Shown one piece after another: positions 46,806-60,862 of a stretch of DNA of 60,863 bases. The notes beneath the pieces were generated by a model. It saw only the letters and a program-made list of their open reading frames with translations. It had not been told where the DNA came from and made no database searches. Source of the stretch: an uncultured Myxococcales bacterium (GTDB lineage: Bacteria; Myxococcota_A; UBA9042; DTJE01); the NCBI GenBank assembly GCA_964424165.1, contig CAYRIB010000003.1, forward strand, positions 1 to 60,863, written 5' to 3'. Position 1 is the first letter of the stretch. The number at the start of each line of letters is the position of its first letter. The position numbers were made by a program, and so were the translations under genes.

Positions 46806-49319
46806 ATGATGACCCCGTTGTGGAAACGTGACCTAGGCCGCGCCATCGGCCTGCTCGGGCGGATGGCGACTGCGGTTGCCGCATCCCTGGCCTTGCTGCC
46901 GCAGGCGCTTGCGGGCGAGGCGGATCTGAATGTTCCGTCGCTGTCGCAGGTCCAGTTCCTCGGTGGGGTCGGGGGTGACACGCTCCTGCTCGTCGGCCTG
47001 GCCGTCTGCCTTCTGGGCATGGTGTTCGGACTCGTCATGTACGTGCGCCTGAAGAAGCTGCCCGTCCATCGCTCGATGGCCGACATCTCGAGCCTGATCT
47101 ACGAAACGTGCAAGACCTACCTGCTTACCCAGGGCAAGTTCCTGGCCATCCTGTGGTCGTTCATCGCGATCATCATGGTGGTGTACTTCGGCTGGCTCAA
47201 GCCCATCGACCCGGTGCACTCGCACATCCCGGTCTGGGCCAGCGTGTCGATTATCGTCATCTTCAGCATCATCGGGATCCTCGGCAGCTACGGCGTGGCT
47301 TGGTTCGGCATCCGGATCAACACCTTCGCCAATTCCCGAACCGCGTTTGCAAGCCTGCGGGGCAAGCCGTTCCCGGTGTATTCCATTCCGGCCAGTTCCG
47401 GGATGTCGATCGGCATGCTGCTCATCTCGGTCGAACTGATCATCATGCTGGCCATCCTGCTGTTCGTGCCGGGCCAACTCGCAGGCGCCTGTTTCATCGG
47501 GTTCGCGATCGGCGAATCGCTGGGTGCGGCGGCACTGCGCATCGCGGGCGGCATCTTTACGAAGATCGCGGACATCGGTTCCGACCTGATGAAGATCGTG
47601 TTCAAGATCAAAGAGGACGACGCACGCAACCCCGGGGTCATTGCGGACTGCACCGGCGACAATGCCGGCGATTCGGTCGGCCCGACCGCCGACGGGTTCG
47701 AAACCTACGGCGTGACCGGCGTGGCACTGATCACGTTCATCCTTCTGGCCGTCACCAAGGCAGGCTCGCCCGAAGCCAACGCCACCATCCAGGTGCAATT
47801 GCTCGTATGGATCTTCGTGATGCGCGTCCTGATGATCATCACCTCCGCGGTGTCGTATTTCGCCAATGACTTCGTGGCACGGATGCGATTTCTGCAGGCC
47901 GACAAAATGGACTTCGAACAGCCCCTGACCTCGCTGGTCTGGCTGACCTCAATCGTGTCGATCGGCATGACCTTCCTGGCTTCGTGGCTGCTGATCCCGG
48001 ATCTTGGCGGCAACACGACCATGTGGTGGAAGCTCGCCAGCATCATCTCGTGCGGCACCATCGCGGGCGCCCTGATCCCCGAACTCGTGAAGGTCTTCAC
48101 CTCGACCAAGTCCGGCCATGTGCGCGAGGTGCTTACGGCCTCGAAAGAAGGCGGGCCCTCGCTCAACATCCTGTCGGGCTTCGTGGCCGGCAATTTCAGT
48201 GCCTACTGGATGGGCATCACCATCGTGGGTCTCATGGCCATCGCCTATGGCATCGGTACCCTCGGGTTGCACGACCTGATGCACGCGGAGTCCGTGTTCG
48301 CGTTCGGTCTGGTGGCCTTCGGGTTCCTGGGCATGGGCCCGGTGACCATCGCGGTGGACAGTTACGGACCGGTGACCGACAACGCGCAGTCCGTGTTCGA
48401 ACTCTCGACGATCGAGACCCTGCCCAACGCACCGGCCGAAATTGAGCGCGACTTCGGATTCACGCCCGACTTCACGCGCGCCAAGGAACACCTCGAAGAA
48501 GGCGATGGGGCAGGCAACACGTTCAAGGCCACGGCCAAGCCCGTGCTGATCGGAACCGCGGTGGTGGGCGCCACGGCCCTGATCTTCTCGATCATCCAGA
48601 TGCTTGGTGCCGGCTACGGCCCGGAGGTCGTCGAGAGGGCATTGTCGATCCTGAACCCCCGCTTCCTGCTGGGCCTGATCCTCGGCGGGGCCATCATCTA
48701 CTGGTTCACCGGGGCCGCCACCCAGGCCGTGACCACGGGTGCCCACCGGGCCGTGGCCTTCATCAAGAAGCACATCCATCTGGACAGCGGGGCCGAGCGC
48801 GCCTCGGTCACGGACAGCAAGAAGGTCGTTGAAATCTGCACCCAGTATGCCCAGAAGGGCATGTTCAATATCTTCCTGGCCGTGTTCTTCAGCGCCCTGG
48901 CGTTCGCATTCCTGGACCCGTTCATGTTCATCGGCTATCTGATCTCGATCGCGATCTTCGGCTTGTATCAGGCCATCTTCATGGCCAATGCGGGCGGGGC
49001 CTGGGACAATGCCAAGAAGATCGCCGAGACCGAACTCAAGGCCAAGGGCACGCCTCTGCACGACGCGACGGTCGTGGGCGACACCGTGGGTGACCCCTTC
49101 AAGGACACCTCTTCGGTGGCCATGAACCCGGTGATCAAGTTCACCACCCTGTTCGGGGTGCTCGCCGTGGAACTGGCCGAAAAGATCCGCCATCCGGACG
49201 TCGCGAACTTCGGGGTGGTCGAAAACACCCTGCCCACCGTACTGGCCGCCTGCTTCTTCGCGGTGTCCGTGGTCTTCGTGTGGCGCTCGTTCTACGGCAT
49301 GCGGATCAAGGCGGACTAG
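46806..49319 (+). CDS. hppA: membrane-bound proton-translocating pyrophosphatase (divergent, long form)
   Basis: About 16 TM helices. Motifs: KIADIGSDLMKIVFKIKEDDARNPGVIADCTGDNAGDSVGPTADGFETY, DSYGPVTDNA, GNTFKATAKP, GGAWDNAKK, DTVGDPFKDT. GGGAGG lies before the ATGATG at 46806/46809. Confidence 0.93.
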   Translation: MMTPLWKRDLGRAIGLLGRMATAVAASLALLPQALAGEADLNVPSLSQVQFLGGVGGDTLLLVGLAVCLLGMVFGLVMYVRLKKLPVHRSMADISSLIYETCKTYLLTQGKFLAILWSFIAIIMVVYFGWLKPIDPVHSHIPVWASVSIIVIFSIIGILGSYGVAWFGIRINTFANSRTAFASLRGKPFPVYSIPASSGMSIGMLLISVELIIMLAILLFVPGQLAGACFIGFAIGESLGAAALRIAGGIFTKIADIGSDLMKIVFKIKEDDARNPGVIADCTGDNAGDSVGPTADGFETYGVTGVALITFILLAVTKAGSPEANATIQVQLLVWIFVMRVLMIITSAVSYFANDFVARMRFLQADKMDFEQPLTSLVWLTSIVSIGMTFLASWLLIPDLGGNTTMWWKLASIISCGTIAGALIPELVKVFTSTKSGHVREVLTASKEGGPSLNILSGFVAGNFSAYWMGITIVGLMAIAYGIGTLGLHDLMHAESVFAFGLVAFGFLGMGPVTIAVDSYGPVTDNAQSVFELSTIETLPNAPAEIERDFGFTPDFTRAKEHLEEGDGAGNTFKATAKPVLIGTAVVGATALIFSIIQMLGAGYGPEVVERALSILNPRFLLGLILGGAIIYWFTGAATQAVTTGAHRAVAFIKKHIHLDSGAERASVTDSKKVVEICTQYAQKGMFNIFLAVFFSALAFAFLDPFMFIGYLISIAIFGLYQAIFMANAGGAWDNAKKIAETELKAKGTPLHDATVVGDTVGDPFKDTSSVAMNPVIKFTTLFGVLAVELAEKIRHPDVANFGVVENTLPTVLAACFFAVSVVFVWRSFYGMRIKAD

Positions 49320-49338: not shown

Positions 49339-50796
49339 CTAGATCGGGTCGTCGCTTCCGGTGGAATACACCACATCACCCACGTGAACCTGCGGTGTTC
49401 CCGAAGCCCGAAGATATTGCAGATCCGCCATCTCGGTGGTCAGCCGTGCGTAACCCCAGGCGGAACCGGCCTCCCCGTCAGAATGTCGCGCAAGCTGCGC
49501 ACCCAGGGCCCGATTGGCACGCGGCATGCGCCGACGCAGTTCCCCTTCCCGCAGCCACGGGGGCACCTCGTCGCTCAGGCCCGCGAGCACGGCAGCAGGG
49601 TCCGCGGGAATCTGCGGGCGAACCGGGTCCGAAAGCCATACGAGCAGCGATGCCATGGTGCGCCGCCCGCCCTGATCCGCCCCCCACAGCACGCCCCGGG
49701 CCAACAGCAGGCCGAACACGCCGATCGAGAAGCCCATGGGCACGAATACCAGGAGCATGCGCAACGTGGGGCTTGCGGCCGACAGGGTCAGGACCCCAAG
49801 CACGATCGCGCCGAGCAGATTAACGAACGAAAAGCCCATCACCAGCAGGGCTGCCGGCGTGTCATGCGCCAGGGCCCAGGACGCGGCCTCGACGCGCGCA
49901 AAGGCGTCGGGCTCAGGCGCATCGTTCTTCACATCCGCTGCCCCTTCGACATCGGTGCGCAGCAGGCTGCGGAAGTCGTAAACGATGCTGCCCCCGTCGG
50001 TCACCAGCACATCCGCCCCATATTGGGCGTACAGACGCGACACCTCGACGTCGGCCGAAGCCAGGTCACCGCCGAACAGCCAGACCCAGTCACTGGCGCC
50101 CGCGAAGCCGTTACAGGCCACGACGTGGCGCAAGAACGCCCGATCCCGGTCCCGCCCCTCAACCATACGGGCGCCTTTACCGAACACGAACGCGAAGATC
50201 CGGTCCTGCCAGGGACGCCCCGCTGCCCGCCGGGCCAGGGTCGCGAGCGAAAACCCCAGCCACCGCGATGCACCATCCGCCCCTGCCTCGGACCCGGCTT
50301 GATCGGAGGTGTCGCTTTGGGGGTGCAAGACGGCCTGCACCGGGTCTTCGCGACGGCGCACCAGGTCCAAAGCCATTCCCCCGAGCAGCTTCAGGAACTC
50401 CTTGATCGGGGTCGAAAACTCGGACAGGCCCTGGCCTCGGGTCAGCATGGCGATGAAGAACAGGATATAGATAGTGCCGTAGATCAGGAGGATACCCAGA
50501 AATCCGAGTCTGAACAGAAATCGGGCCACGGCCTGGGCCCCGTGCCCGACGGCTCGTGCGATCGCCCCCAAACGCTCCTGAACGGTGATGCGGGCCTGTG
50601 CCTCGGGCCCGAAGTCGTAGAGGATCTCGCCGCTCTGCGTGACCTTCAGCACGCATCGAAAGCGGCGAATCAAACTGCGCAGGGCCGGTTCCGCCTCGGT
50701 TTTCGGCAGCCCCGTCGCCGCCATCAACTGGCCCAGGGACAAGCTCCCTGGTGACTTGCGCACCACCTCGAACAGGGACATTTCGGCCTTGGTCAT
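49339..50796 (-). CDS. hypothetical membrane protein with three internal repeats
   Basis: Trimmed to Met50, which is preceded by GAAGGAG with a 6-nt spacer. TM helices FLFRLGFLGILLIYGTIYILFFIAML, LLVMGFSFVNLLGAIVLGVLTL and LLVFVPMGFSIGVFGLLLA. Repeated ...G.I.YDF modules. Confidence 0.65.
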   Translation of the reverse strand: MTKAEMSLFEVVRKSPGSLSLGQLMAATGLPKTEAEPALRSLIRRFRCVLKVTQSGEILYDFGPEAQARITVQERLGAIARAVGHGAQAVARFLFRLGFLGILLIYGTIYILFFIAMLTRGQGLSEFSTPIKEFLKLLGGMALDLVRRREDPVQAVLHPQSDTSDQAGSEAGADGASRWLGFSLATLARRAAGRPWQDRIFAFVFGKGARMVEGRDRDRAFLRHVVACNGFAGASDWVWLFGGDLASADVEVSRLYAQYGADVLVTDGGSIVYDFRSLLRTDVEGAADVKNDAPEPDAFARVEAASWALAHDTPAALLVMGFSFVNLLGAIVLGVLTLSAASPTLRMLLVFVPMGFSIGVFGLLLARGVLWGADQGGRRTMASLLVWLSDPVRPQIPADPAAVLAGLSDEVPPWLREGELRRRMPRANRALGAQLARHSDGEAGSAWGYARLTTEMADLQYLRASGTPQVHVGDVVYSTGSDDPI

Positions 50797-50882: not shown

Positions 50883-51338
50883 GTGCGGGTTGCGGTACCA
50901 ACGGATGATGGCAGACACGTGGCACGCCGCTTCGGCCGGGCACGGGCGTTTGTGGTCACCGACGTGGACCAGGGACAGATTGCACCTTCGGATGTGCGTC
51001 CGAACCCGATGAGCGCCACCTCGGACCCGCCGCCCAAGACCCGTTTCCGGGCGTCCCACAAGACTTTCCGACCCCATCGCCACCAGATGCTCTTGGACCT
51101 TTTGGCAGACTGCCGTTCGGTGATCGTGTACGGCATCAGCGAACCCCTGCGCCACCTTCTATTCAGTCGCGGCATCGAGGTGGTCTTCACCTCCGAGGAA
51201 CTGGTGGACCGCGTGCTGGCGCTGTTCTCGGTCGGTGCTCTCCGGGATGAATCGCGCAGCGATGAAGCCCCACTCGATGATGGCTCCGACGGGTGGGATG
51301 CCACGCGATTCGGAACCGGGGACGACTACGACGCGTGA
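50883..51338 (+). CDS. NifB/NifX-type (dinitrogenase FeMo-cofactor-binding fold) domain protein with acidic tail
   Basis: GTG 50883 after GAGAGG. VRVAVPTDDGRHVARRFGRARAFVVTDV...LLADCRSVIVYGISEPLRHLLFSRGIEV matches the family pattern. The stop lies 2 nt before the next start. Confidence 0.6.
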   Translation: MRVAVPTDDGRHVARRFGRARAFVVTDVDQGQIAPSDVRPNPMSATSDPPPKTRFRASHKTFRPHRHQMLLDLLADCRSVIVYGISEPLRHLLFSRGIEVVFTSEELVDRVLALFSVGALRDESRSDEAPLDDGSDGWDATRFGTGDDYDA

Positions 51339-51340
51339 AC

Positions 51341-52084
51341 ATGTCGAACGCAGCCGTCGAACTGCGGGATGTAGATCAATCCTTTGCGGGCCGCAAGGTG
51401 CTGGATGGGTGTGCCTTGCGCCTCGAGGCCGGCCGGATCCACGGACTGATCGGGCGCGGAGGCTCGGGCAAGACGCTGCTCACCCGCGTGATCTCGACCC
51501 TGCTGCGCCCGGACGCCGGGATCGTGCGTCTGTTCGGTCGCGAGGTGGACTGGGATGACGATGACCTCGTCCGGTCGCTCCGGGCAGGGATCGGCATGCA
51601 GTTCCAGAACATCGCCCTGTTCGACTTTCTCGACGTCTTCAACAACGTGCTGTTTCCCCTCCGGGCTCGAAAAGGAGATGCGCCTCTCGAAGACTCGGAA
51701 GAACGCGTGATGGGAGCCCTTGCCGCGGTCGGTCTGGCCGCTGCAGCGCGGCACCAGGTGTCCGAGCTGTCGGGGGGAATGCAGAGGCGCGTGGCCATCG
51801 CGCGCGCCCTGGTCACCGGGGCCGAACTTCTGATCCTCGATGACCCCACGGGCGGTCTGGACCCGGTCACGTCGTCACGCACCTTCGATCTGATCGCCCA
51901 CATCCACGAACAACAGCGCAAGACCATTCTGGTCGTTTCGCACGACCTCGACCGTCTGGAGAGGATCTGCGATCGCTACCACGTGCTCGATTCCGGCCGG
52001 ATCCTGTTTTCGGGGACCTTGGACGAGGGCAGGGGGTCGGCCAATCCGGGCGTTTCGGGATTGTTGACGGGGTACACGGCATGA
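51341..52084 (+). CDS. mlaF: MlaF-like ABC ATPase 1 (Walker B Glu replaced by Asp)
   Basis: GRGGSGKT, Q-loop MQFQ, LSGGMQRRVAIARAL, LLILDDPTGGLD, VVSHDLD. 247 aa. Confidence 0.88.
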   Translation: MSNAAVELRDVDQSFAGRKVLDGCALRLEAGRIHGLIGRGGSGKTLLTRVISTLLRPDAGIVRLFGREVDWDDDDLVRSLRAGIGMQFQNIALFDFLDVFNNVLFPLRARKGDAPLEDSEERVMGALAAVGLAAAARHQVSELSGGMQRRVAIARALVTGAELLILDDPTGGLDPVTSSRTFDLIAHIHEQQRKTILVVSHDLDRLERICDRYHVLDSGRILFSGTLDEGRGSANPGVSGLLTGYTA

Positions 52085-52851
52085 ACGCGGGACTCGCCAA
52101 CGTCGGCCGCGCATGGCTGGACCTTTGCACCACCGTGGGGGGTCTGGGACGCCTGCAGTGGGCGATCTTCCAGGCCATGTTCCCGCCCCGCTTCGACTAC
52201 GACGAAACCTTGCGGCAGTTCTACAAGGTCGGGGTTCAGAGCCTGCCCGTGGTGATCGTGACCGCACTGTTCACCGGGGCCATCATGGTGGTTGGTGGCG
52301 GAACCGCGGTGCGCAATACGGGGGCCACCTCCCTGGTCGGGTGGGTCGCGGGAACGGCGGTGCTGGCCGAGGTCGGCCCGGTCCTGATCGGCCTCATGTT
52401 CTCGGGGCGGGTCGGGGCCAACAACACCGCGGAACTCGGCACCATGAGCGTGACCGATCAGGTCAATGCCCTGCGGGTTCTGGGGCTGGACCCGATCGGG
52501 TATCTCGTGGTGCCACGCTTCGTGTCGATGATTGTGATGCTGGGCCTGCTCACCTGCATCGGGGACCTGTTCGCCCTGACCGGGGGGGCCATTACGTGCC
52601 AGTTCCTGCTCGACATCGACATGCGGGTCTACTGGCAATCGGTGATGGACAGCCACTTGATCAACGAGTTCGTCATGGGCATCGTCAAGGGCGTGGCCTT
52701 CGGTTGGAGCATCTCGGTGGTGTCTTGCTACTATGGGATGAACGTGTCAGGAGGGGCCGAGGGCGTTGGCCGAGCGGTCAACAACTCGGTGGTTGCGGCC
52801 GCCATCGGCATCTTCGTGGTGAACTACCTCATTACGTCGGTGTGGCTGTGA
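52081..52851 (+). CDS. mlaE: MlaE-like ABC permease 1
   Basis: ATGA overlap with ATPase 1. ...FSGRVGANNTAELGTMSVTDQVNALRVLGLDPIGYLVVPRF... is the MlaE/YrbE signature region. 256 aa. Confidence 0.88.
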   Translation: MNAGLANVGRAWLDLCTTVGGLGRLQWAIFQAMFPPRFDYDETLRQFYKVGVQSLPVVIVTALFTGAIMVVGGGTAVRNTGATSLVGWVAGTAVLAEVGPVLIGLMFSGRVGANNTAELGTMSVTDQVNALRVLGLDPIGYLVVPRFVSMIVMLGLLTCIGDLFALTGGAITCQFLLDIDMRVYWQSVMDSHLINEFVMGIVKGVAFGWSISVVSCYYGMNVSGGAEGVGRAVNNSVVAAAIGIFVVNYLITSVWL

Positions 52852-52859
52852 GCAGCGGG

Positions 52860-53621
52860 ATGAAGTCAGTGATTGGGAACCTCCCGTTCATGGACCTTCC
52901 AGGAAGGTACGCCAACCTGCTGGGGCAGACCCTGCGTGCGCTGTTTCGAAGCCCTCCGTCGCGCACCGTGCTGCTCGATCAGATGCACAATGTGGGCAAC
53001 CGCTCGATCCTGTTCATCACCGTGACCATCGGATTTCTGGGGTTCATGCTCGTGTACGAGGCGTGCATCAACGCCCTCAAGGTCATTCCCGAGCTGTCGG
53101 GCGTTGGAGGCCTTTTCATTTCGACCTTCGTCAGCGAGTTCGGCCCCACGATCACGGCCCTGATGATCGCGATCCGGGTGGGCAGCGGCATCGCGGCCGA
53201 ACTCGGGTCCATGAAGGTCACCGACCAGCTCGACGCGATGCGACTGACCAATACCGACCCCGTGGAATACGTGCTTGCCCCCCGTTTCGTGGCCACGTCG
53301 ATCATGACCGTGGTCTTGTCGATTTACGCGGTGGCCGTGGGCACGGCAGCGGGCATGCTGGTCGCGGCCACCCGGTTCCAGATCAATCCCAAGACCTTCC
53401 TGACGCTGCGCAACGTGGACTGGGCCGACTTTGGCACGGGTCTGACCAAGGCCGTAGCCTACGGGATCGTCATCCCGATCATTGCCGCGGAGTCCGGATT
53501 CCGCACCGAGGGCGGCTCGGAAGGGGTAGGGTGGGCCACGACCCGCGCCGTGGTCAACACATCGTTCGCAGTGATCATGCTCGATTTCGTGATTGGTTCG
53601 ATCTTCTATCTCGTGACGTGA
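52860..53621 (+). CDS. mlaE: MlaE-like ABC permease 2 (divergent paralog)
   Basis: Track ORF 52113..53621 trimmed to ATG 52860, 8 nt after the permease 1 stop. ...AIRVGSGIAAELGSMKVTDQLDAMRLTNTDPVEYVLAPRF... 253 aa. Confidence 0.85.
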   Translation: MKSVIGNLPFMDLPGRYANLLGQTLRALFRSPPSRTVLLDQMHNVGNRSILFITVTIGFLGFMLVYEACINALKVIPELSGVGGLFISTFVSEFGPTITALMIAIRVGSGIAAELGSMKVTDQLDAMRLTNTDPVEYVLAPRFVATSIMTVVLSIYAVAVGTAAGMLVAATRFQINPKTFLTLRNVDWADFGTGLTKAVAYGIVIPIIAAESGFRTEGGSEGVGWATTRAVVNTSFAVIMLDFVIGSIFYLVT

Positions 53622-53628
53622 GGGCCCG

Positions 53629-54372
53629 GTGTTCGAGTTTCGCGAAGTCAGCAAGGCCTTTGGGGACCATCCGGTATTCTCGCGCCTCTCGCTGACCCTG
53701 CACGACCGTGAAATCACCTACATCATCGGCAGCAGCGGCACGGGCAAGAGCGTGTTGATCAAGCTCGGACTCGGACTCATCCACCCCGACGAGGGCCGGA
53801 TCCTCGTGGACGGACAGGACGTCACGGACCTCTCCGAGGCGGCATGGCGCCCGATTCGCAAGCGTAACGTCCTGGTGTTTCAGCATTCCACCCTCTTCGA
53901 TTCCATGACCCTGCGCGAGAACGTGGCCCTGCCGCTGCGGCGACATGCAGGGCTGTCCCGCCAGGCCGCACTCGATCACGCGGTCGAATACCTCGAACTC
54001 ATGCAGATGGCCGATCAGGCCGATCGGATGCCGCAGGAGATCGGCCCTTCCGAACGCAAACGGGCGGCCATTGCGCGCGCCCTGGCCTTGTCTCCGCAGT
54101 GCGCGATCCTTGACGAACCGACCACCGGTCTGGACGTGCTGACCGCAGCCTCGGTCGACGAGGTGATCGTCCGCCTCGGGCGCGTCCTGGGCAAAACCGT
54201 CATCGTGGTGTCGCACGACATCCGCTCGATCTTCGGCGTTGCGGACCGCATCATCTTTTTGTATAAGGGGCAAGTGCATCTGGATGGCAGCCCGGGCGAC
54301 TTTCGGAAGTCGACGGACCCCGTGGTTCGCCAGTTCGTCAATGGGGATGCATCCGGCCCGATGGAGACCTGA
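53629..54372 (+). CDS. mlaF: MlaF-like ABC ATPase 2 (signature motif degenerate)
   Basis: GTG start. GSSGTGKS, Q-loop VFQH, AILDEPTTGLD, VVSHDI. The signature position reads MPQEIGPSERKRAAIARAL instead of LSGG. Confidence 0.85.
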   Translation: MFEFREVSKAFGDHPVFSRLSLTLHDREITYIIGSSGTGKSVLIKLGLGLIHPDEGRILVDGQDVTDLSEAAWRPIRKRNVLVFQHSTLFDSMTLRENVALPLRRHAGLSRQAALDHAVEYLELMQMADQADRMPQEIGPSERKRAAIARALALSPQCAILDEPTTGLDVLTAASVDEVIVRLGRVLGKTVIVVSHDIRSIFGVADRIIFLYKGQVHLDGSPGDFRKSTDPVVRQFVNGDASGPMET

Positions 54373-54375
54373 TCA

Positions 54376-55386
54376 ATGGCAGGGCGCGTCAAGAAAGTCG
54401 AGGTCAAGGTCGGGGCCTTGATCCTGCTGGCCGTGGGCCTGCTGATCGGATTCCTGGTACTGCTGGGCGATTTCAGTTGTGCGCCCCAGGCGGTTCTGTA
54501 CGCGGATTTCCCGACCAGCGCGGACCTGAAGATCGGCGCCCCGGTCAAGGTCACAGGAGTGACCATCGGCAAGGTGACGGCCGTGGAGTTGTGGGGCGGG
54601 CGTCCGGATCCGGCGCACGACGGCAAGCGGGTCGACGTGCGCGTCCAGATGAAGTTGACCGCAGACTCGCTGAATCTTCTGCGGGCCGACAGCCGGTTCT
54701 ATATCACAACCCTGGGGCTGCTCGGCGAACGCTACATCGAGATCGACCCCGGGACTCCGCAGGCCCCTGCGGTTCAGGCCGGCCAGGTCCTCGATGGCAT
54801 CGGGCCGATGCGGATGGAACTGGTGGGTGCGGATGCCTCGAAGCTGATCGGGGACCTCACGGTGCTCGTCAAGGACAATCGGGGGGACATCAACGGCCTG
54901 ATTCATCATTCCCGCAATGCGGTGCAGCAGATCGACGAACTGCTCGTCACCAACAAAGCAACGATTCAAGAAATTATCGTCAACACTAATGAATCATTGA
55001 CTTCCATACGCCACCTCACAGCCCAGATTGAACGGGCCATCGGCAACGGCGACGACGTGGGCCACATCCTGGCATCCCTGCGCGTGGTCAGCGAGCGTCT
55101 CGAGGAGGCGTCCCCCGCGCTCAAGGTCATGGCCGGGATCCTGAACAAGGCCGACAAGGGTGTCGGCGAGGTGACGACCATCCTGGCCACGGCGCGCCAG
55201 ATTGTGACCGATGCCCAGCAGGACGTCGGGGCAACGCTCAAGAATGCCCGTCAGATCACGGAAGCGGTCCGCGACGGCCGTGGCAGCATCGGGGCCTTCG
55301 TGGCCGATCGCGAACTCTACGACAACGTCGTGGAAATGCTCAAGGACCTCAAGCGCCATCCCTGGAAGTTCCTGTGGAAAGAATGA
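54376..55386 (+). CDS. mlaD: MlaD/MCE-domain protein with long helical C-terminal extension
   Basis: N-terminal TM helix (VGALILLAVGLLIGFLVLLG). One MCE domain (LYADFPTSADLKIGAPVKVTGVTIGKVTAVEL...GLLGERYIEIDPG). About 200 further aa are predicted helical. 336 aa. Confidence 0.88.
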   Translation: MAGRVKKVEVKVGALILLAVGLLIGFLVLLGDFSCAPQAVLYADFPTSADLKIGAPVKVTGVTIGKVTAVELWGGRPDPAHDGKRVDVRVQMKLTADSLNLLRADSRFYITTLGLLGERYIEIDPGTPQAPAVQAGQVLDGIGPMRMELVGADASKLIGDLTVLVKDNRGDINGLIHHSRNAVQQIDELLVTNKATIQEIIVNTNESLTSIRHLTAQIERAIGNGDDVGHILASLRVVSERLEEASPALKVMAGILNKADKGVGEVTTILATARQIVTDAQQDVGATLKNARQITEAVRDGRGSIGAFVADRELYDNVVEMLKDLKRHPWKFLWKE

Positions 55387-56069
55387 TCGGCCAGAGTCCG
55401 AGACGTCGGACATGGTTCGCAACGCTGACGGCGGTGGGCACGCTCGCGCTGCTGTCCTCTTCGGCATTCGCAGTTCCCGATGCCAGCCACAGCCCCTTGA
55501 CCATGCTCGAGCGCATCGCGTTCGCGGACCGTCTGGCTCGGGGCGGCCGCCTCGGTCAGGCTTTCGCGGGCTATCTCGTGGTGCTCAAGGACTACCCGAC
55601 GTGGTGGCTGCCCATGCTCAAGGCGGGCGTGACGGCCCGAGCCATGCGCATGCCGCCGGACACCGTGCGGGAACTGGTGTCACGGGCCATGGGCCTGTCC
55701 CCGGAAGGCCCTTATGCGGGCCTGATCGCCATGCTGCTCGGGCTCGAGGCCGGGCAACCGCCTCCTGCACTTCCAGGCGACCATGCGTTGCCCGGCGTAG
55801 AGAACCTGCCCGGGGACAAAAGGGACCTGATCCGCGACCGGCAGGACTTTGCTCGGGCCCTGCAGGCCGAACGGTCGGACAGCCGGGTCGAAGCCAAGGC
55901 CCTCTATCGCGAACTCATCCAACGACGTCCGACGTTCGTGGCGGCACGAGTCCGGCTGGCCCGGATGCTCTTCGCCGATGGTGCGTCGGACGAGGCGAGA
56001 GGCCTGTTGATGAACACCCGCGCCACGTCCCTCTTACCGGCGCGGATTCAGGCGATGAGCCGACGATGA
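55383..56069 (+). CDS. secreted helical-repeat (TPR-like) protein, function unknown
   Basis: The ATG at 55383 forms an ATGA overlap with the mlaD stop. Signal peptide TLTAVGTLALLSSSAFA|VPD. The remainder is Ala/Leu/Arg-rich and helical. Confidence 0.6.
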   Translation: MIGQSPRRRTWFATLTAVGTLALLSSSAFAVPDASHSPLTMLERIAFADRLARGGRLGQAFAGYLVVLKDYPTWWLPMLKAGVTARAMRMPPDTVRELVSRAMGLSPEGPYAGLIAMLLGLEAGQPPPALPGDHALPGVENLPGDKRDLIRDRQDFARALQAERSDSRVEAKALYRELIQRRPTFVAARVRLARMLFADGASDEARGLLMNTRATSLLPARIQAMSRR

Positions 56070-56228
56070 ACAAAGACTTCAAACAAAGATGCGTCGAGCG
56101 TGTGAAGAACGCAAAAATATTGTTGACGACCTCGCCCGACCCTTATAAGAATAGATGGGCTCGATGGATCCCGCAGGTTGGGACCTCGATGCAGGCGCCT
56201 CTGTAGAGGATTGCGACGGGAGCTTGCC

Positions 56229-57986
56229 ATGACTGTCGGGTTGATCATTTCGTTGGTGGGCGCTGTGGTTGCCCTGATCGGCACGCTCGCCTTCTCCTGG
56301 GTGGACGAAGATGTCGTCAAGTTCGCCGACGTCGTGCTCCATTCGGGCTATGCCTGGTGGACGGGGGTGATCTTCCTGATCACCAGTTTCCTGGGTCTGG
56401 GCGCTTGCGTCGCCGGGCTGATCACTCCGCGCAAGAAGCTTTTCGCGATGATTGGCCTCGGGCTTGCCGTGGCCGGGTTCGTGTTCTTCCTGCTGACTCC
56501 CTTCCAGGTCCGATCGATGATCGAGCAAATGAAGGCCGGTGGCCTGCTCGACGTGACCACCACCACGGCCATGTCCACGGGATTCATCATGGCGTTTTTG
56601 GGCACCCTGGCCATGGTCGTCGGATACGTGTGGACCCTTGGGGCCCAGCCGATCCTCGGACCGGACGATCGCCTTCTGCGCGTGGCGCTGCTGTGGCAGG
56701 GCAAGCTGATCAAGGAAACCACGTTCACGGAACATCGCGACATCACGGTCGGCGACGGCGTGAAATCGGATTTCGTTCTTCCGACCAAGGACTTCGGGAA
56801 GTCTACGTCCCTGTTCCGGTACGACCACAAAACCGGCTACGATGTGGGGCTGCATCGTGAGATGCAGGGGCGCGTCAGCATCGGCGGCAATGTCACTTCG
56901 GTCGCCGAACACGTCAAGAAGCACACGGGCGATGCGCTTGGCACGAACTGGGTGTCGGTCGGCAGCGGCGACTGGGGCGTGATGGAATTCGGGGACGTGG
57001 AACTGTTCTTCCAGTTCGTGCGTCCCACCGTGATCGTGGGCCGGCAACGCGCCCTCGCCATGGACCATACGATTGTGGCCGCCATCGTGGGCGCCCTGTT
57101 CGTGGTGGCCGCGTTCTTCACCGTGGCCCAGTTCGCGTGGAATCCATTCGGGAACATCGAGCAGCGCAAGGTCGAAAAGCGGCTCATGTCCGTGAACGTG
57201 AACGTGCTCGAAGAAAAGGTCGAACAGTTGCTCGAGATCGGCGAAGAAGAGGACACCGTCGGCAAGAAGGCCGAAGGTGAGGAAGGCAAGTTCGGCGACC
57301 CGGACAAGGACCCGTCTCTTGAAAGCAAGGTTCCCAAGCGCGAAGGCATGATGGTGTCGAAGATCGACCCCAAGAAGATCGGGCTTGCGAACGTGCTGTC
57401 CAACAGCATGAAGTCGGGCGCGATATCGTCGATCCTCAGCGACAACGCGGATGCCTTCGACAACAAGATGGCCGTGGCCATGGCCGGAACCGGCTCCGAA
57501 CTTTCGATCGGCTACGGGGCCGGCGGCATGGGCTTCAAGGGCACGGGCTCCGGCGGTGGCGGCACCGGGGGCTACGGCCGCATCCACGGGCTGGGTCGGG
57601 TCGACACCGGCGGCGGAATGGGCATGCGCGCGGGCCTGGGCAAGAAGGGCACGGGCAAGGTCGGAAAGTTCAGTCCCGGCGGCATGTCGGGTTCCGGCTT
57701 CTGTCAGCGCAATGACATCCAGTCCAAGGTGATGCAGCGGGCGGGCGCCATCCGCGCCTGCTACGAGCAGCAGCTCCAGATTCACGAGAATCTCGCCGGC
57801 AAGGTGACGGTCCGCTGGACCATCAACCTCGAGGGCGTGGTCGACGGCGCTTCCGTGCTCGACAGCACCCTGGGAAACAGTGCCGTCGAACAGTGCGTGA
57901 TGCGTGCCATCCGCCGAATCCGGTTCGCGCCACCGGAAGGCGGCGTTTGCGTGGTACAGTGGCCGTTCGTGTTCAACCCGGGCTAG
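56229..57986 (+). CDS. TonB-like protein: polytopic N-terminus, Gly-rich linker, AgmX/PglI-type (TonB-C-like) C-terminal domain
   Basis: Trimmed to Met18, which is preceded by GGGAG. Four N-terminal TM helices, a soluble module, a fifth TM helix, a charged E/K region, a GGxG-rich linker, and the C-terminal CQRNDIQSKVMQRAGAIRACYEQQL...KVTVRWTINLEGVV...VEQCVMRAIRRIRFAPPEGGVCVVQWPFVF. Confidence 0.75.
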   Translation: MTVGLIISLVGAVVALIGTLAFSWVDEDVVKFADVVLHSGYAWWTGVIFLITSFLGLGACVAGLITPRKKLFAMIGLGLAVAGFVFFLLTPFQVRSMIEQMKAGGLLDVTTTTAMSTGFIMAFLGTLAMVVGYVWTLGAQPILGPDDRLLRVALLWQGKLIKETTFTEHRDITVGDGVKSDFVLPTKDFGKSTSLFRYDHKTGYDVGLHREMQGRVSIGGNVTSVAEHVKKHTGDALGTNWVSVGSGDWGVMEFGDVELFFQFVRPTVIVGRQRALAMDHTIVAAIVGALFVVAAFFTVAQFAWNPFGNIEQRKVEKRLMSVNVNVLEEKVEQLLEIGEEEDTVGKKAEGEEGKFGDPDKDPSLESKVPKREGMMVSKIDPKKIGLANVLSNSMKSGAISSILSDNADAFDNKMAVAMAGTGSELSIGYGAGGMGFKGTGSGGGGTGGYGRIHGLGRVDTGGGMGMRAGLGKKGTGKVGKFSPGGMSGSGFCQRNDIQSKVMQRAGAIRACYEQQLQIHENLAGKVTVRWTINLEGVVDGASVLDSTLGNSAVEQCVMRAIRRIRFAPPEGGVCVVQWPFVFNPG

Positions 57987-58131
57987 AGGGTCTGGCGCCG
58001 TCAACGTGGTTGACTTTGGCGCCGGCCACGGGTACAAGAACAGGGCGGGCCGCCGGTTTGGTTGGGTTCCCCGAGGGCAACTGCGGGGTTGTTTTGGGTC
58101 CGAGGCATTGAAATCAGGGAGGGGTTCTCAG

Positions 58132-58803
58132 ATGTTTGAATTCATCGGCGAGGCCTTTGACAAGGGCGGCTTGAACATGTACGTGATCCTCATCACGTTC
58201 ATCTTCCTGCTGGGCTTGCTGGTCGAACGCATCATCGTTTTGTACTTCCAGTCCAACGTGGACAAGGAAGGCTTCACGAAGGTGCTCACGCGGAACATCC
58301 TGGCGGGCGACTTGCGCAACGCGCTCAAGTTGTGCTCGATCTCGAAGTTCCCGCTGGCCAAGATCCTGCAGGCCGGACTGATGAAGGCCAAGGAGTCCGA
58401 TGCCGAGGTTCAGGCCGCGATGGACGAAGCAGCCCTGCGCGAGATGCCCCGCATCGAGAAGCGCATCGGCTATCTGGCCATGCTCGGTAACGTCGGCGTG
58501 CTCATGGGTCTGCTGGGAACCATTCTCGGCCTGATCCGTTCGTTCGGCGCCGTGGCGAATGCCAGTGCCGCAGAAAAGGCGACCGAGCTCGCGAAGGGCA
58601 TTTCCGAGGCCATGTACAACACGGCCTTTGGTCTGACCGTCGCCATCATCGCGGTCGTGGCGTATGCCTTCATGCAGTCCAAGTCGCAGCACCTGGTCGA
58701 CGACATCAACGAAACCACGGTGAGCCTGCTGAACCTGATCACGTCCAACCGTGACAAGTTCCAGGGCGAGAAGGCGAACACGCGGGTCGAGGACAACGCC
58801 TAG
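58132..58803 (+). CDS. exbB: MotA/TolQ/ExbB family proton channel
   Basis: Trimmed to Met77, which is preceded by GGGAGGGG. LGNVGVLMGLLGTILGLIRSF...ISEAMYNTAFGLTVAIIAVVAY is typical of ExbB/TolQ. 223 aa. Confidence 0.9.
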   Translation: MFEFIGEAFDKGGLNMYVILITFIFLLGLLVERIIVLYFQSNVDKEGFTKVLTRNILAGDLRNALKLCSISKFPLAKILQAGLMKAKESDAEVQAAMDEAALREMPRIEKRIGYLAMLGNVGVLMGLLGTILGLIRSFGAVANASAAEKATELAKGISEAMYNTAFGLTVAIIAVVAYAFMQSKSQHLVDDINETTVSLLNLITSNRDKFQGEKANTRVEDNA

Positions 58804-58856
58804 GCCGGCGACAGGTTCCGAAGCGGAATGCGCTTCGGGAAACGACGGAGGAACCC

Positions 58857-59354
58857 ATGGGCGGCGTTTCTGAACCGACCCCAGGAAAGGGGAAGAAGGA
58901 CCTCAACGTCGAGTTGAACCTGGTCCCCTTCATCGACCTGATGACCGTGTGCGTGACGTTCCTGCTGCTGACCGCGGTCTGGACCCAGACGACCCGGATC
59001 AACATCGACCAGTCGGTGGCCAAGCCGCAGCCCAAGCAGGAACAGAAGGAACCGCCCAAGCGTCTGACCATCGTGGTCGACCAGGCCGGCTACACGGTCA
59101 AGTGGGCAGATCAGCGCCAGGAGACCTTTCCCAAGGTCGACAGCAACTACAACGAGGTCGCCCTGCGGGAGCATCTCGAGAAGCTGATCAAGGACGAGGC
59201 CGAGAAGCTTCCCAAGGATCAGAAGGTCATCGTGGCCCCCGAGGACAAGGTGGCCTACAAGGACATGGTGCAGGTCATGGATGTGTGCATCCGTGTCGGC
59301 CTGCCCAACATCATGGTAGCCGATGCCGCATCAGCCATGGCCGGGATGATGTAG
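58857..59354 (+). CDS. exbD: ExbD/TolR family protein 1
   Basis: LNLVPFIDLMTVCVTFLLL (the conserved TM Asp) and a periplasmic domain ...VIVAPEDKVAYKDMVQVMDVCIRVG. 165 aa. Confidence 0.88.
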   Translation: MGGVSEPTPGKGKKDLNVELNLVPFIDLMTVCVTFLLLTAVWTQTTRINIDQSVAKPQPKQEQKEPPKRLTIVVDQAGYTVKWADQRQETFPKVDSNYNEVALREHLEKLIKDEAEKLPKDQKVIVAPEDKVAYKDMVQVMDVCIRVGLPNIMVADAASAMAGMM

Positions 59355-59363
59355 GAGGTTTCG

Positions 59364-59948
59364 ATGCCCATTGTCGCACCAGGCTCCCGGATCGGCTCGA
59401 GCGTCCGGATGAAGGGCCTGAAAGTCCAGAAGGGGAAGGGCGGCCGCAGCATGCTGGTCTACCTCAACCTGACCCCGATGATCGACATGTTCACGATTCT
59501 GGTCGTCTTCCTGCTGATGACCTTCTCGGCAACCGGCGAAATCCTGTTCACCCAGAAGGACATCCAGTTGCCCAGGGCATTTGCGGACAAACCCCTCGAA
59601 CGCGTGCCGATCATCGGGATCTCGCAGGAAGTCATTCTGGTGGAAGGCGAGAAGGTGATGTTCACCAGCGGCGTCCAGGAAAAGAACTACCCCGACGCCA
59701 AGCTGCCCGAGCTCGCCAAGATGCTGAAAACGACTCACGAGCAGTTCATCCACGGCAATCCCATGCCGAGCGACAAGGAACGTGCCGAGCGCTGGATCGA
59801 GGAATCGAAGCAGATCATCATCCAGGCTGACCAGGGCGTGCCCTTCGAAGTCATCCGCCTCGTCATGACCACCGCGGCCTTCGAGGGCTATTCCGCGATC
59901 AACTTCGCGGTCGTGCCCAAGGGCACGGGAACCTTCGCTGCCGAATAA
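59364..59948 (+). CDS. exbD: ExbD/TolR family protein 2
   Basis: YLNLTPMIDMFTILVVFLLM (TM Asp) and ...IIQADQGVPFEVIRLVMTTAAFEG. 194 aa. Starts 9 nt after exbD 1. Confidence 0.85.
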   Translation: MPIVAPGSRIGSSVRMKGLKVQKGKGGRSMLVYLNLTPMIDMFTILVVFLLMTFSATGEILFTQKDIQLPRAFADKPLERVPIIGISQEVILVEGEKVMFTSGVQEKNYPDAKLPELAKMLKTTHEQFIHGNPMPSDKERAERWIEESKQIIIQADQGVPFEVIRLVMTTAAFEGYSAINFAVVPKGTGTFAAE

Positions 59949-59971: not shown

Positions 59972-60862
59972 TTAGGGAACGCTGCGGAGGATCGTGGGTT
60001 CGATGTTGCGGACCACGTGCAGCGGTGCGGACATCATGCGCCCCCCAAGGGTCATCGCGGCCACGGATTCGATGTCCTGGACCAGCGGCGTCACCGACAA
60101 CGTGCTCTCGTCCCGCACCGACACGGACAGGGTCTTCTCAAGCACCTTGGGCACGTCCGCTGCCGCAAAGATGCCGACGTAGATGTCCTTGACCTGCCGC
60201 GTGGGCTCGTCGCGCCCCACGACAATGGTTCCGTCCGACCAGATGGCGTACCCGCCGAGGTCGGGCCCGAAGCTTCGATAGCGAACCACCGGCCCCACGT
60301 TCGGCAGGATCTCCTTTTGTCCTTCCTTCACCGGGGCGAGTTGCAGCACCGGCACCCCGTCGACCGAGTCCGCCACGAAGAACAACGCGACCGGGTCGAT
60401 CGATTCGTCGAACTGCGCCATGGCCCGGGCAAACACCTTGACCCTCGCGGGCACGTTCACACCCCGGACCGGCTGTCCGTGCTCGTCCTCGAACCCGTGA
60501 AAGGCGATGCGTGCGCCTGCGGGCACGATCGCTAGGGGCACCCGGATGGTGTCGGTCGGTTCGGTCACCGCACCGTCGAAGAAATCGATTACGAGTTCCT
60601 CTTTGCGACCGATGTCCTGCGGGACATCGATGTGATCCTGACAGTCGAGGCTCTCGTGCGTCGCACCGAAGGCCCGTGCCACGAAGCGGCGGGAGTCGGC
60701 CCGGGACACGACCTCGCACTCGAACTTGACCCGCGTGCCCGCCATCACGTCGATCGGCCGATAGCTCTGGTTCTCGGTGAGTTCCATGCGCATGAAAGGC
60801 TCGTCATCCACGTGCACGATGGTCAGCTTGGGCGTCTCGAAGGCTTCGAGCGAGCGAGCCCC
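59972..60862 (-). CDS. hypothetical protein, C-terminal part (5' end lies right of the window)
   Basis: The frame of track ORF 59972..60817 remains open to the window edge (...LEAFETPKLTIV-HVDDEPF...). GC3-rich codons. I see no recognisable motif. Confidence 0.55.
   Translation of the reverse strand, partial: GARSLEAFETPKLTIVHVDDEPFMRMELTENQSYRPIDVMAGTRVKFECEVVSRADSRRFVARAFGATHESLDCQDHIDVPQDIGRKEELVIDFFDGAVTEPTDTIRVPLAIVPAGARIAFHGFEDEHGQPVRGVNVPARVKVFARAMAQFDESIDPVALFFVADSVDGVPVLQLAPVKEGQKEILPNVGPVVRYRSFGPDLGGYAIWSDGTIVVGRDEPTRQVKDIYVGIFAAADVPKVLEKTLSVSVRDESTLSVTPLVQDIESVAAMTLGGRMMSAPLHVVRNIEPTILRSVP

Follow-up and report, generated by a model that had tools for sequence, protein, structure and literature searches.

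Genes for an MCE-type transporter, a GltG-like transducer and a Tol/Agl-like motor lie side by side in a lineage of uncultured Myxococcota

The routes by which phospholipids travel to and from the outer membrane are still under debate, and so is the reason why the proton-driven Tol-Pal system affects the lipid balance of this membrane. Among the systems that use a motor of this general type, the Agl-Glt core complex was described by Luciano et al. (2011) as AglR, AglQ and AglS (245, 162 and 194 aa in their Table 1) together with GltG and the tetratricopeptide repeat (TPR) proteins GltD, GltE and GltC; its function outside gliding bacteria is unknown (PMC3169522). GltG carries an N-terminal FHA domain which binds GltI, while the part consisting of a central module, a transmembrane (TM) helix, a linker and a TonB C-terminal domain has been modelled to dock onto AglR and to extend as far as the TPR proteins in the periplasm (PMC11761067). 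Here we analyse a run of eleven genes at positions 50883-59948 of a 60,863-nt stretch of DNA from an uncultured Myxococcales bacterium (contig CAYRIB010000003.1 of assembly GCA_964424165.1, hereafter the window), in which the genes of an Mla/MCE-type transporter are followed by those of a TPR protein, a TonB/TolA-type transducer that we call TON, and an ExbB-ExbD-ExbD triad. DNA of the window is present in bioreactor, wastewater, activated-sludge and sediment metagenomes. All the parts are of known kinds, while their arrangement and the family of GltG-like transducers with five TM helices are new variants; we found no paper describing a linkage of MCE with TonB/ExbBD genes.

For the following we divide the run into module M1 (the NifX-like gene, two ATPases, two MlaE permeases and MCE), module M2 (TPR and TON) and module M3 (ExbB-ExbD-ExbD). 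Our analysis suggests that this 9-kb region is, on balance, a lineage-specific juxtaposition of three separately promoted envelope modules and not one operon. Two older adjacencies, of Mla with TPR-TON and of TON with the motor, overlap in one lineage and there make up the full super-cluster. The elements of this argument that we observed directly are the gene content, the synteny pattern and the conservation of promoters. All eleven open reading frames (ORFs) are co-directional on the + strand and intact, with no internal stop in any of them according to the ORF listing and to direct translation. The distances between them are, in order, 2, -4, 8, 7, 3, -4, 159, 145, 53 and 9 nt, the second -4 corresponding to an ATGA overlap at the MCE/TPR junction and the two large values to the TPR-TON gap (56070..56228) and the TON-exbB gap (57987..58131). 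A preliminary description of this DNA had listed the eleven same-strand genes with these junctions and had assigned their domains, all of which the ORFs and the Pfam and NCBIfam profiles bear out (bit scores are quoted below against the family cut-offs). The composition it proposed, one TolQ/ExbB-like and two TolR/ExbD-like proteins with a TonB-like protein of the GltG type, is likewise present, and the two gaps, which it thought might hold internal promoters, both carry sigma-70-like promoters conserved across relatives.

The synteny pattern was derived from about 240 loci of species-representative genomes, 80 for each alignment query (TON, MCE and ExbB; L numbers below designate these loci). 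The TON-based set, consisting of three Pfam-annotated contigs and 80 loci, was analysed by tblastn with the proteins of the window, de novo clustering of neighbouring ORFs and a TON tree, and hidden Markov models (HMMs) built from the neighbour clusters were used to follow which genes travel together. Counted by locus, the most frequent neighbour families of TON are ABC ATPases (27), MCE (26), ExbB (21), ExbD2 (20), MlaE (19) and ExbD1 (19). The tree contains a group of TON homologues (47 rows) that divides into several clades with good support. Clade A (support 100), made up of the window and about 15 rows, has the order (NifX)-ATPase-MlaE-MlaE-ATPase-MCE-(TPR)-TON-ExbB-ExbD-ExbD, where the genes in brackets are missing from some loci. 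The full cluster is confined to this clade, that is to about 18-20 species-level uncultured Myxococcota whose TON proteins are 45-66% identical to that of the window; the MCE search contributed further members (L085, L086, L148, L153, L155). Clade A loci also have their outer flanks in common (BamD-like, LPG-synthase-like, c14, HEAT-repeat and TRAP genes), which means no more than that the genomes of this clade are collinear in the region. Clades B1 and B2 (TON 40-47% identical) possess the Mla block and TPR-TON without the motor, between flanks that differ from those of clade A (TatA, class A PBP, MGMT and others); B1 has its MCE gene in inverted orientation, with two additional genes, c27 and c10, between MCE and TPR-TON. 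Conversely, in clade C and in L027/L032, TON adjoins ExbB-ExbD-ExbD without an Mla block, arranged as exbB-exbD-exbD-TON, divergently or as TON-exbBDD. Still other genomes have either TON or Mla by itself. TON is the hub of the three-module juxtaposition. A large group of loci (L097-L120, L131-L133, L145, L146) has the ATPase2-MCE pair alone with no MlaE gene within 10 kb, so that even obligate partners do not keep a fixed gene order in this phylum.

Further evidence comes from the two gaps. A scan of the region found one promoter-like site, TTGACG-18-AAGAAT, in the TPR-TON gap, and a TTGACG...nAnAAT element upstream of TON recurs in clades A and B and in L027/L032. Within the TON-exbB gap, GTTGACA-N17-TAnAnn is found in 11 of the 12 aligned clade A sequences, the remaining row (L010) aligning poorly. 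These predicted promoters argue that TON and exbB-exbD-exbD are each transcribed from a promoter of their own and, since both gaps are concerned, for at least three units, NifX...MCE-TPR, TON and exbB-exbD-exbD. Public RNA data are too sparse to decide on co-transcription: two metatranscriptome-type runs carry the organism as a few contigs of 150-370 nt, and one of the libraries may contain DNA. In run X25, where coverage is thin, a perfect 365-nt contig (57735-58099) reaches from inside TON across its stop codon into the TON-exbB gap, and a 162-nt contig (56206-56367) begins 23 nt before the TON start codon.

A C-rich hairpin 40-60 nt upstream of the exbB start codon is a candidate element of clade A leaders (L005, L009, L011, L012, L015, L016, L017, L035), and in L012 and L035 the arms read CCACCG...CGGTGG in place of CCCCG...CGGGG, a change that looks compensatory. 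RNAalifold did not recover this hairpin because MAFFT had misaligned the 3′ arms, and paired a UUCCCC run with the Shine-Dalgarno sequence GGAGG instead; the leader could be a switch that sequesters the Shine-Dalgarno sequence. An Rfam scan of the region from 50 to 60.9 kb gave no credible match. All features are collected in Table 1. The long minus-strand ORFs over the run can be read as the usual antisense ORFs of a genome with 63% G+C, since they overlie + strand genes that are backed by protein families; the nearest real minus-strand genes lie upstream at 49339-50796 and, downstream, at the position of c14.

Table 1. Features of the gene run and its surroundings (positions in the window)
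Feature	Position	Strand	Basis
NifX-like gene (Nitro_FeMo-Co)	50883-51338	+	PF02579 38.1 bits, cut-off 26.3
ATPase1, divergent MlaF-like ABC ATPase	51341-52084	+	ABC_tran 105 bits
MlaE1, MlaE-family permease	52081-52851	+	PF02405 226.5 bits
MlaE2, MlaE-family permease	52860-53621	+	PF02405 182.4 bits
ATPase2, MlaF-like ABC ATPase	53629-54372	+	ABC_tran 99.9 bits
MCE, single-MCE-domain protein	54376-55386	+	PF02470 65.8 bits, cut-off 25.1
TPR, secreted protein, 228 aa	55383-56069	+	TPR_19 26.6 bits, signal peptide
Predicted sigma-70-like promoter for TON, TTGACG-18-AAGAAT	56123-56152	+	consensus scan and conservation
TON, TonB/TolA-type transducer, 585 aa	56229-57986	+	NF033768, TIGR01352
Predicted sigma-70-like promoter for exbB-exbD-exbD, TTGACT-17-TACAAG	58010-58038	+	conservation
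Candidate exbB leader hairpin, CCCCG...CGGGG	58069-58088	+	clade A leaders
ExbB/TolQ/AglR-like proton-channel subunit, 223 aa	58132-58803	+	PF01618 103 bits
ExbD1, ExbD/TolR/AglQ-like subunit 1, 165 aa	58857-59354	+	PF02472 77.5 bits
ExbD2, ExbD/TolR/AglS-like subunit 2, 194 aa	59364-59948	+	PF02472 50.7 bits
c14, conserved gene convergent on exbD2, cut by the window end	59972-60862	-	no Pfam match

The TON protein begins with four N-terminal TM helices, which are followed by a soluble module, another TM helix (the fifth), a periplasmic region and a TonB C-terminal domain. In the alignment of its relatives, conservation is very high in the periplasmic region, which is charged and rich in Gly, and a His residue preceding the fifth helix is not conserved; with five hydrophobic segments and a spacer rich in E/K and in Gly, the protein does not correspond to a single N-terminal anchor followed by a Pro-rich spacer. 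The C-terminal tail, which contains Cys, is of the AgmX/PglI type (NF033768, 90 bits, cut-off 40), and the TonB C-terminal domain is recognized by TIGR01352 (40.4 bits, cut-off 27.1), the Pfam TonB_C score of 20.6 bits remaining under its cut-off of 24.6. GltG is the best NCBIfam match, with 148 bits against an equivalog cut-off of 650 (NF033760) and coverage of model positions 205-647 only; what TON shares with GltG is exactly the part from the central module to the C-terminus. Full-length relatives (38-82% identity) come solely from metagenome-assembled genomes (MAGs) of uncultured Myxococcota or "Deltaproteobacteria"; a single-sequence locus search with TON alone gave one Planctomycetota match, which was judged spurious. 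Tandem TON genes occur in L025, L026, L064, L066 and L067, one copy usually being long-branched, and L032 has two divergently oriented TON-ExbB modules. The neighbours of distant homologues (<40% identity) are, by eye, cystathionine enzymes, Fur and FeoB, or TilS and FtsH; at L044-L046, L049, L051, L054-L057 and L063, TON lies between cystathionine beta-synthase/gamma-lyase and Fur, FeoB (also by eye), a context that hints at an iron-related role for this distant branch.

The TPR protein, which scores 33 bits with TPR_Slam, under the cut-off of that family, clearly keeps company with TON. Its family (HMM >85 bits) is found solely in the position immediately before TON, both in clades A and B and at L030, L038, L052 and L074, and the HMM gave no match at any of the Mla loci without TON fetched here; TPR therefore belongs with TON. 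At the same time its start codon is, in most clade A loci, no more than 4 nt away from the MCE stop codon (-4 nt in the window, L005, L006, L012 and L014; -1 nt in L013). This apparent translational coupling of TPR to MCE is the best hint of a real link between Mla and TON. In the L007/L009 sub-lineage of clade A, the TPR gene is absent from the locus while the remaining cluster is intact, and the spacing between MCE and TON is only about 285 nt (L007/L009:9716-10001).

In the motor module the membrane Asp, as read from the sequence, is retained in both ExbD proteins (Asp27 in ExbD1, Asp41 in ExbD2). ExbB and ExbD1 score higher with TolQ (TIGR02796, 78 bits, cut-off 221) and TolR (TIGR02801, 44 bits, cut-off 127) than with ExbB and ExbD, all under the equivalog cut-offs, and TolQ chains are the best PDB sequence matches of ExbB and its nearest solved relatives. 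The triad measures 223/165/194 aa and its Myxococcaceae homologue 244/160/about 192 aa. Sizes, gene order and an ExbB tree that looks like the taxonomy suggest that the triad may be the orthologue of AglR-AglQ-AglS; a protein search with the Myxococcaceae triad homologue returned generic "ExbB/TolQ" names, none of them AglR. ExbB-ExbD-ExbD triads (ExbB 45-57% identical) are present in Anaeromyxobacter, Myxococcaceae, Archangiaceae, Sorangium, Polyangium, Minicystis, Haliangiales, Kofleriaceae and Bradymonadia. The major groups of the ExbB tree, Myxococcaceae and Anaeromyxobacter included, track taxonomy, which would fit one vertically inherited motor, although there are genomes with more than one triad, such as SXOO (L043 and L237). 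The triads adjacent to TON fall nearly all into clade A, clade C and L027/L032. The triads of Anaeromyxobacter, Myxococcaceae, Sorangium, Minicystis and others are near neither an Mla block nor TON, and among the loci retrieved with ExbB, tblastn detected an Mla block or TON nearby only in a copy of a clade A locus; the HMM search added a TON-like ORF beside the triad of a Bacteriovoracaceae MAG (L226).

The surroundings of the motor genes may retain traces of an older arrangement. The Anaeromyxobacter terrae triad is flanked by a histidine kinase and a H+-pyrophosphatase. A H+-pyrophosphatase 70% identical to the A. terrae protein is encoded in the window (46806-49319), ending 1.5 kb upstream of the NifX-like gene. 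In A. terrae it follows the triad directly (L170:7992-12582), and in the window it is on the opposite side of the Mla/TON block, so this block may have been inserted, or rearranged, between two old neighbours, the triad and the H+-pyrophosphatase. A 589-aa + strand ORF upstream of A. terrae exbB was rejected as a TON homologue, as was a homology between this upstream ORF and the upstream membrane protein of the window. On the other side of the triad, c14, a conserved neighbour of the motor and TON genes in clades A and C, adjoins ExbBDD in clade A, follows exbD2 co-directionally in L032 and L027, and has weak homologues in L043, L048 and L061. The AlphaFold2 model of one homologue (L009:14080-15120 (-), pLDDT 84) has a TM helix at the N-terminus and, behind it, tandem Ig-like beta-sandwiches, for which Foldseek gave generic immunoglobulin-fold matches only. 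The c14 product is accordingly predicted to be anchored in the membrane and to carry tandem Ig-like domains in the periplasm; its gene travels with the motor/TON module, and it is a candidate for an extra component of the motor system.

In the transporter block, both permeases clear the PF02405 cut-off of 22.5 bits by a wide margin. The ATPases meet the ABC_tran profile only: with the MlaF equivalog NF008809 (cut-off 441) ATPase2, for which MlaF is the best NCBIfam match, reaches 173.6 bits and ATPase1 135.1 bits. The MCE protein consists of an N-terminal TM helix, the MCE domain, a helical extension of about 200 aa and a C-terminal tail (...KDLKRHPWKFLWKE) that is very strongly conserved in an alignment of MCE relatives; MlaD chains are its best PDB sequence matches, and precomputed PF28544 Helical_needle matches exist for the MCE proteins of relatives. 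Pfam and NCBIfam searches of the eleven genes gave no match to the families of MlaB (STAS), the periplasmic carrier MlaC or the outer-membrane lipoprotein MlaA. The NifX-like gene, with ATPase1 starting 2 nt past its stop codon and in turn overlapping MlaE1 by 4 nt, holds the first position in most clade A loci; it was undetected at L016/L017 and in clade B. There, a gene for a 375-aa TPR/BamD-like protein (L003:2825-3952 (+)) opens the Mla unit, overlaps the ATPase1 start and occupies the position that the NifX-like gene has in clade A.

Clade B offers two further companions of the transporter. The gene c10 encodes a protein of about 230 aa (L003:8095-8793 (-), L019:8302-9450 (-) and other clade B loci) whose AlphaFold2 model (pLDDT 81) matches the OmpA TM domain in Foldseek with E = 1e-7 and a target-normalised TM-score of 0.69. 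From this model c10 is predicted to be an 8-stranded outer-membrane barrel of the OmpA/OmpX/OmpW type, with a conserved periplasmic C-terminal tail (...ARVPRPPEL). The product of c27 is a secreted homologue of ClpP/NfeD-like serine proteases (PF00574, 79.6 bits, with a signal peptide; L021:7468-8316 (-)); its gene immediately precedes MCE in clade B and is found close to MCE in the genomes of clade C, and such a neighbour is unusual for an Mla-type system. The usual clade B unit is c10-ClpP-like-MCE, divergent from TPR-TON. Both genes accompany MCE at loci without TON (L095, L096, L099, L101, L103, L110, L125), c10 stands beside TPR-TON at the Mla-less locus L038, and an HMM search of the window detected no homologue of either.

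How the modules might work can be pictured from their described relatives; stoichiometries, docking, the roles of partners and any cooperation between modules are what we infer here. M1 would be an ATP-driven ABC transporter of the Mla/MCE type with two different ATPases and two different MlaE permeases, which we read as heterodimeric, and with an MCE protein building a homo-hexameric ring prolonged by a helical needle; its cargo would be lipids or other hydrophobic molecules moved between the two membranes. M2 and M3 together are best read as a proton-driven force transducer of the Tol/Agl type. A pentamer of the ExbB/TolQ-like protein would surround a heterodimer of the two different ExbD/TolR-like proteins and energise TON. 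The latter would dock to the motor by the fifth of its TM helices together with the cytoplasmic module in front of this helix, in the way modelled for GltG and AglR, while its periplasmic segment and TonB-type C-terminal domain would extend to the outer membrane. The secreted TPR protein would be the periplasmic partner of TON, by analogy with the TPR proteins GltD and GltE. The adjacency of all these genes would fit a common role in the upkeep of the envelope and outer membrane.

A number of observations weigh against a purely passive juxtaposition. Since the TPR gene of clade A either overlaps the MCE stop codon or directly adjoins it, expression from the Mla unit is likely for at least one M2 gene, and a scan found no terminator-like site in either gap, so that read-through could occur. 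The sole neighbours of TON common to clades A and B are the Mla block and TPR. Their retention beside TON is more than simple drift predicts, given that even MlaE and MCE genes are often separated in this phylum. It is possible, if still rather doubtful, that TPR-TON forms a bridge from the proton-driven motor to either the MCE transporter or an outer-membrane partner of this transporter; for lipid traffic this would mean that ATP drives the process at the inner membrane and the proton-motive force assists at the outer-membrane end. Such a coupling would account for the persistence of Mla and TPR-TON as neighbours in clades A and B despite all other flanks being different, and for a TPR gene translationally coupled to MCE in clade A yet absent from Mla loci without TON. 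In clade B the c10 barrel lies between MCE and TPR-TON and accompanies either of them alone, and the extremely conserved C-terminal tail of MCE could be bound by the TPR domain. A precedent is provided by TolQRA-Pal of E. coli, for which a primary role in outer-membrane lipid homeostasis has been described (PMC11889096; bioRxiv 10.1101/109884). On the other hand, TON and exbB each have their own conserved predicted promoter, the L007/L009 sub-lineage has lost TPR from the locus, and the MCE relative is on a different contig from TON in clade C, in some clade B genomes (e.g. JBMYRH, JAXLYZ) and in outgroup lineages. Moreover, the Mla-TON adjacency requires no more than a single origin on the TON tree, with a few losses (L024, L047), and amounts statistically to one independent comparison. 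The preliminary description had gone further in proposing one dual-energised machine and had looked to related genomes for a conserved linkage. The linkage does exist, with the whole order in clade A and Mla-TPR-TON in clade B, while in many other genomes triad and MCE stand apart from TON; the single machine agrees with the composition and with the linkage in these clades but not with separate promoters and modules that stand apart in other genomes, and it remains hypothetical. In its most complete form, trans-envelope lipid trafficking by a Tol/Agl-type motor wired to the MCE transporter through TPR and the five-helix TON, we regard it as unlikely. We hold the same reserve towards its extension to the sister clade, in which an OmpA/OmpW-like outer-membrane barrel would be added to a system using ATP on the inside and the proton-motive force at the outer-membrane end.

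Two other explanations concern the 3′ block, and both taken together have only a small chance of being correct. The block could be an ordinary Ton system that energises TonB-dependent outer-membrane receptors for nutrient uptake and is unconnected with the Mla genes. TonB-ExbB-ExbD1-ExbD2 is an arrangement described for Ton systems and is the one seen here, the TonB C-terminal domain scores above the TIGR01352 cut-off, and distant TON homologues adjoin Fur and FeoB. We nevertheless consider this improbable: no TonB-dependent receptor was detected among the conserved TON neighbours at 80 loci and none was noted in the window, a protein with five TM helices and a myxobacterial AgmX/PglI tail lacks the single N-terminal anchor and Pro-rich spacer, and the motor subunits score higher with TolQ/TolR than with ExbB/ExbD. 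Still less probable, to the point of being hardly tenable, is that the block belongs to a gliding machine of the Myxococcus Agl-Glt type, or to an Nfs spore-coat machine, even though the composition and sizes of the motor are AglRQS-like and GltG is the best NCBIfam match of TON. The GltG score is far below the threshold, a bundle of four TM helices replaces the N-terminal FHA domain, and genes resembling GltA-F/H-K or CglB were found around TON at none of the 80 loci, its conserved neighbours being Mla genes, the small TPR gene, the ExbBDD triad, c14 and housekeeping genes. The juxtaposition of three separately promoted modules thus remains the interpretation that we favour.

Provided that the link is functional, this pairing of an MCE transporter with a Tol/Agl-like motor and its transducer would offer a concrete lead on lipid transport and on Tol-like motors, the link itself being a TPR gene that evolutionarily goes with the transducer and is translated together with the MCE protein. 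Should the modules indeed be wired into one system, they would open a genetic approach to the influence of Tol-like motors on the lipid homeostasis of the outer membrane. An adjacency of purely historical origin would represent an ordinary case of neighbouring envelope operons. The lead is well defined and testable, and for the present it is drawn from the gene context of one radiation of uncultured bacteria. Independently of this, AglRQS-like triads and GltG-like transducers are widespread in uncultured, probably non-gliding Myxococcota, which bears on the original function of the gliding "core complex".

Compared with known systems, the 3′ block has the gene order of TonB-ExbB-ExbD1-ExbD2 systems, their MotA_ExbB and ExbD families and a TonB C-terminal domain. 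It differs from them in having no receptor partner evident among the conserved neighbours of TON, an atypical transducer and subunits that are nearer to TolQ/TolR. The transporter block has MlaE permeases, MlaF-like ATPases and a TM-anchored MCE/MlaD protein in common with MlaFEDB of E. coli and the mycobacterial Mce systems; its two different permeases recall YrbEA/YrbEB of the latter, and the C-terminal helical extension of the MCE protein recalls the needle of Mce and PqiB. However, two different ATPases are combined here with two permeases, a single MCE gene takes the place of the six mycobacterial ones, MlaB, MlaC and MlaA of the MlaFEDB system were undetected in the run, and a NifX-like gene in front, a TPR gene coupled at the 3′ end and an adjoining TonB-like transducer set the block apart from both. 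With Tol-Pal the locus shares a proton-driven TolQ/TolR-like motor combined with an envelope-spanning transducer of the TolA/TonB type and a periplasmic TPR protein beside the transducer that is reminiscent of CpoB; Tol-Pal, in addition, is functionally connected with the lipid homeostasis of the outer membrane, which is also what Mla systems serve. The locus departs from Tol-Pal in its two different TolR-like genes, in a transducer with five TM helices and a Cys-containing tail, and in scores that miss the equivalog cut-offs; neither the run nor its flanks in clade A yielded a TolB- or Pal-like gene. As for the Agl-Glt core complex, TON has four extra N-terminal TM helices instead of the FHA domain and misses the GltG equivalog threshold, one small TPR protein (228 aa) stands in for GltD, GltE and GltC, TON, TPR and the motor are predicted to be separately promoted, and the linkage with Mla/MCE genes is unreported for the core complex. 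Both nevertheless have one TolQ-like and two different TolR-like subunits of near-identical sizes in the order R-Q-S, a transducer of the GltG type with its central module, TM helix, long periplasmic linker and AgmX/PglI-type domain, and a secreted TPR protein encoded alongside, so that M2 and M3 together resemble a pared-down relative of the AglRQS, GltG and TPR "core complex".

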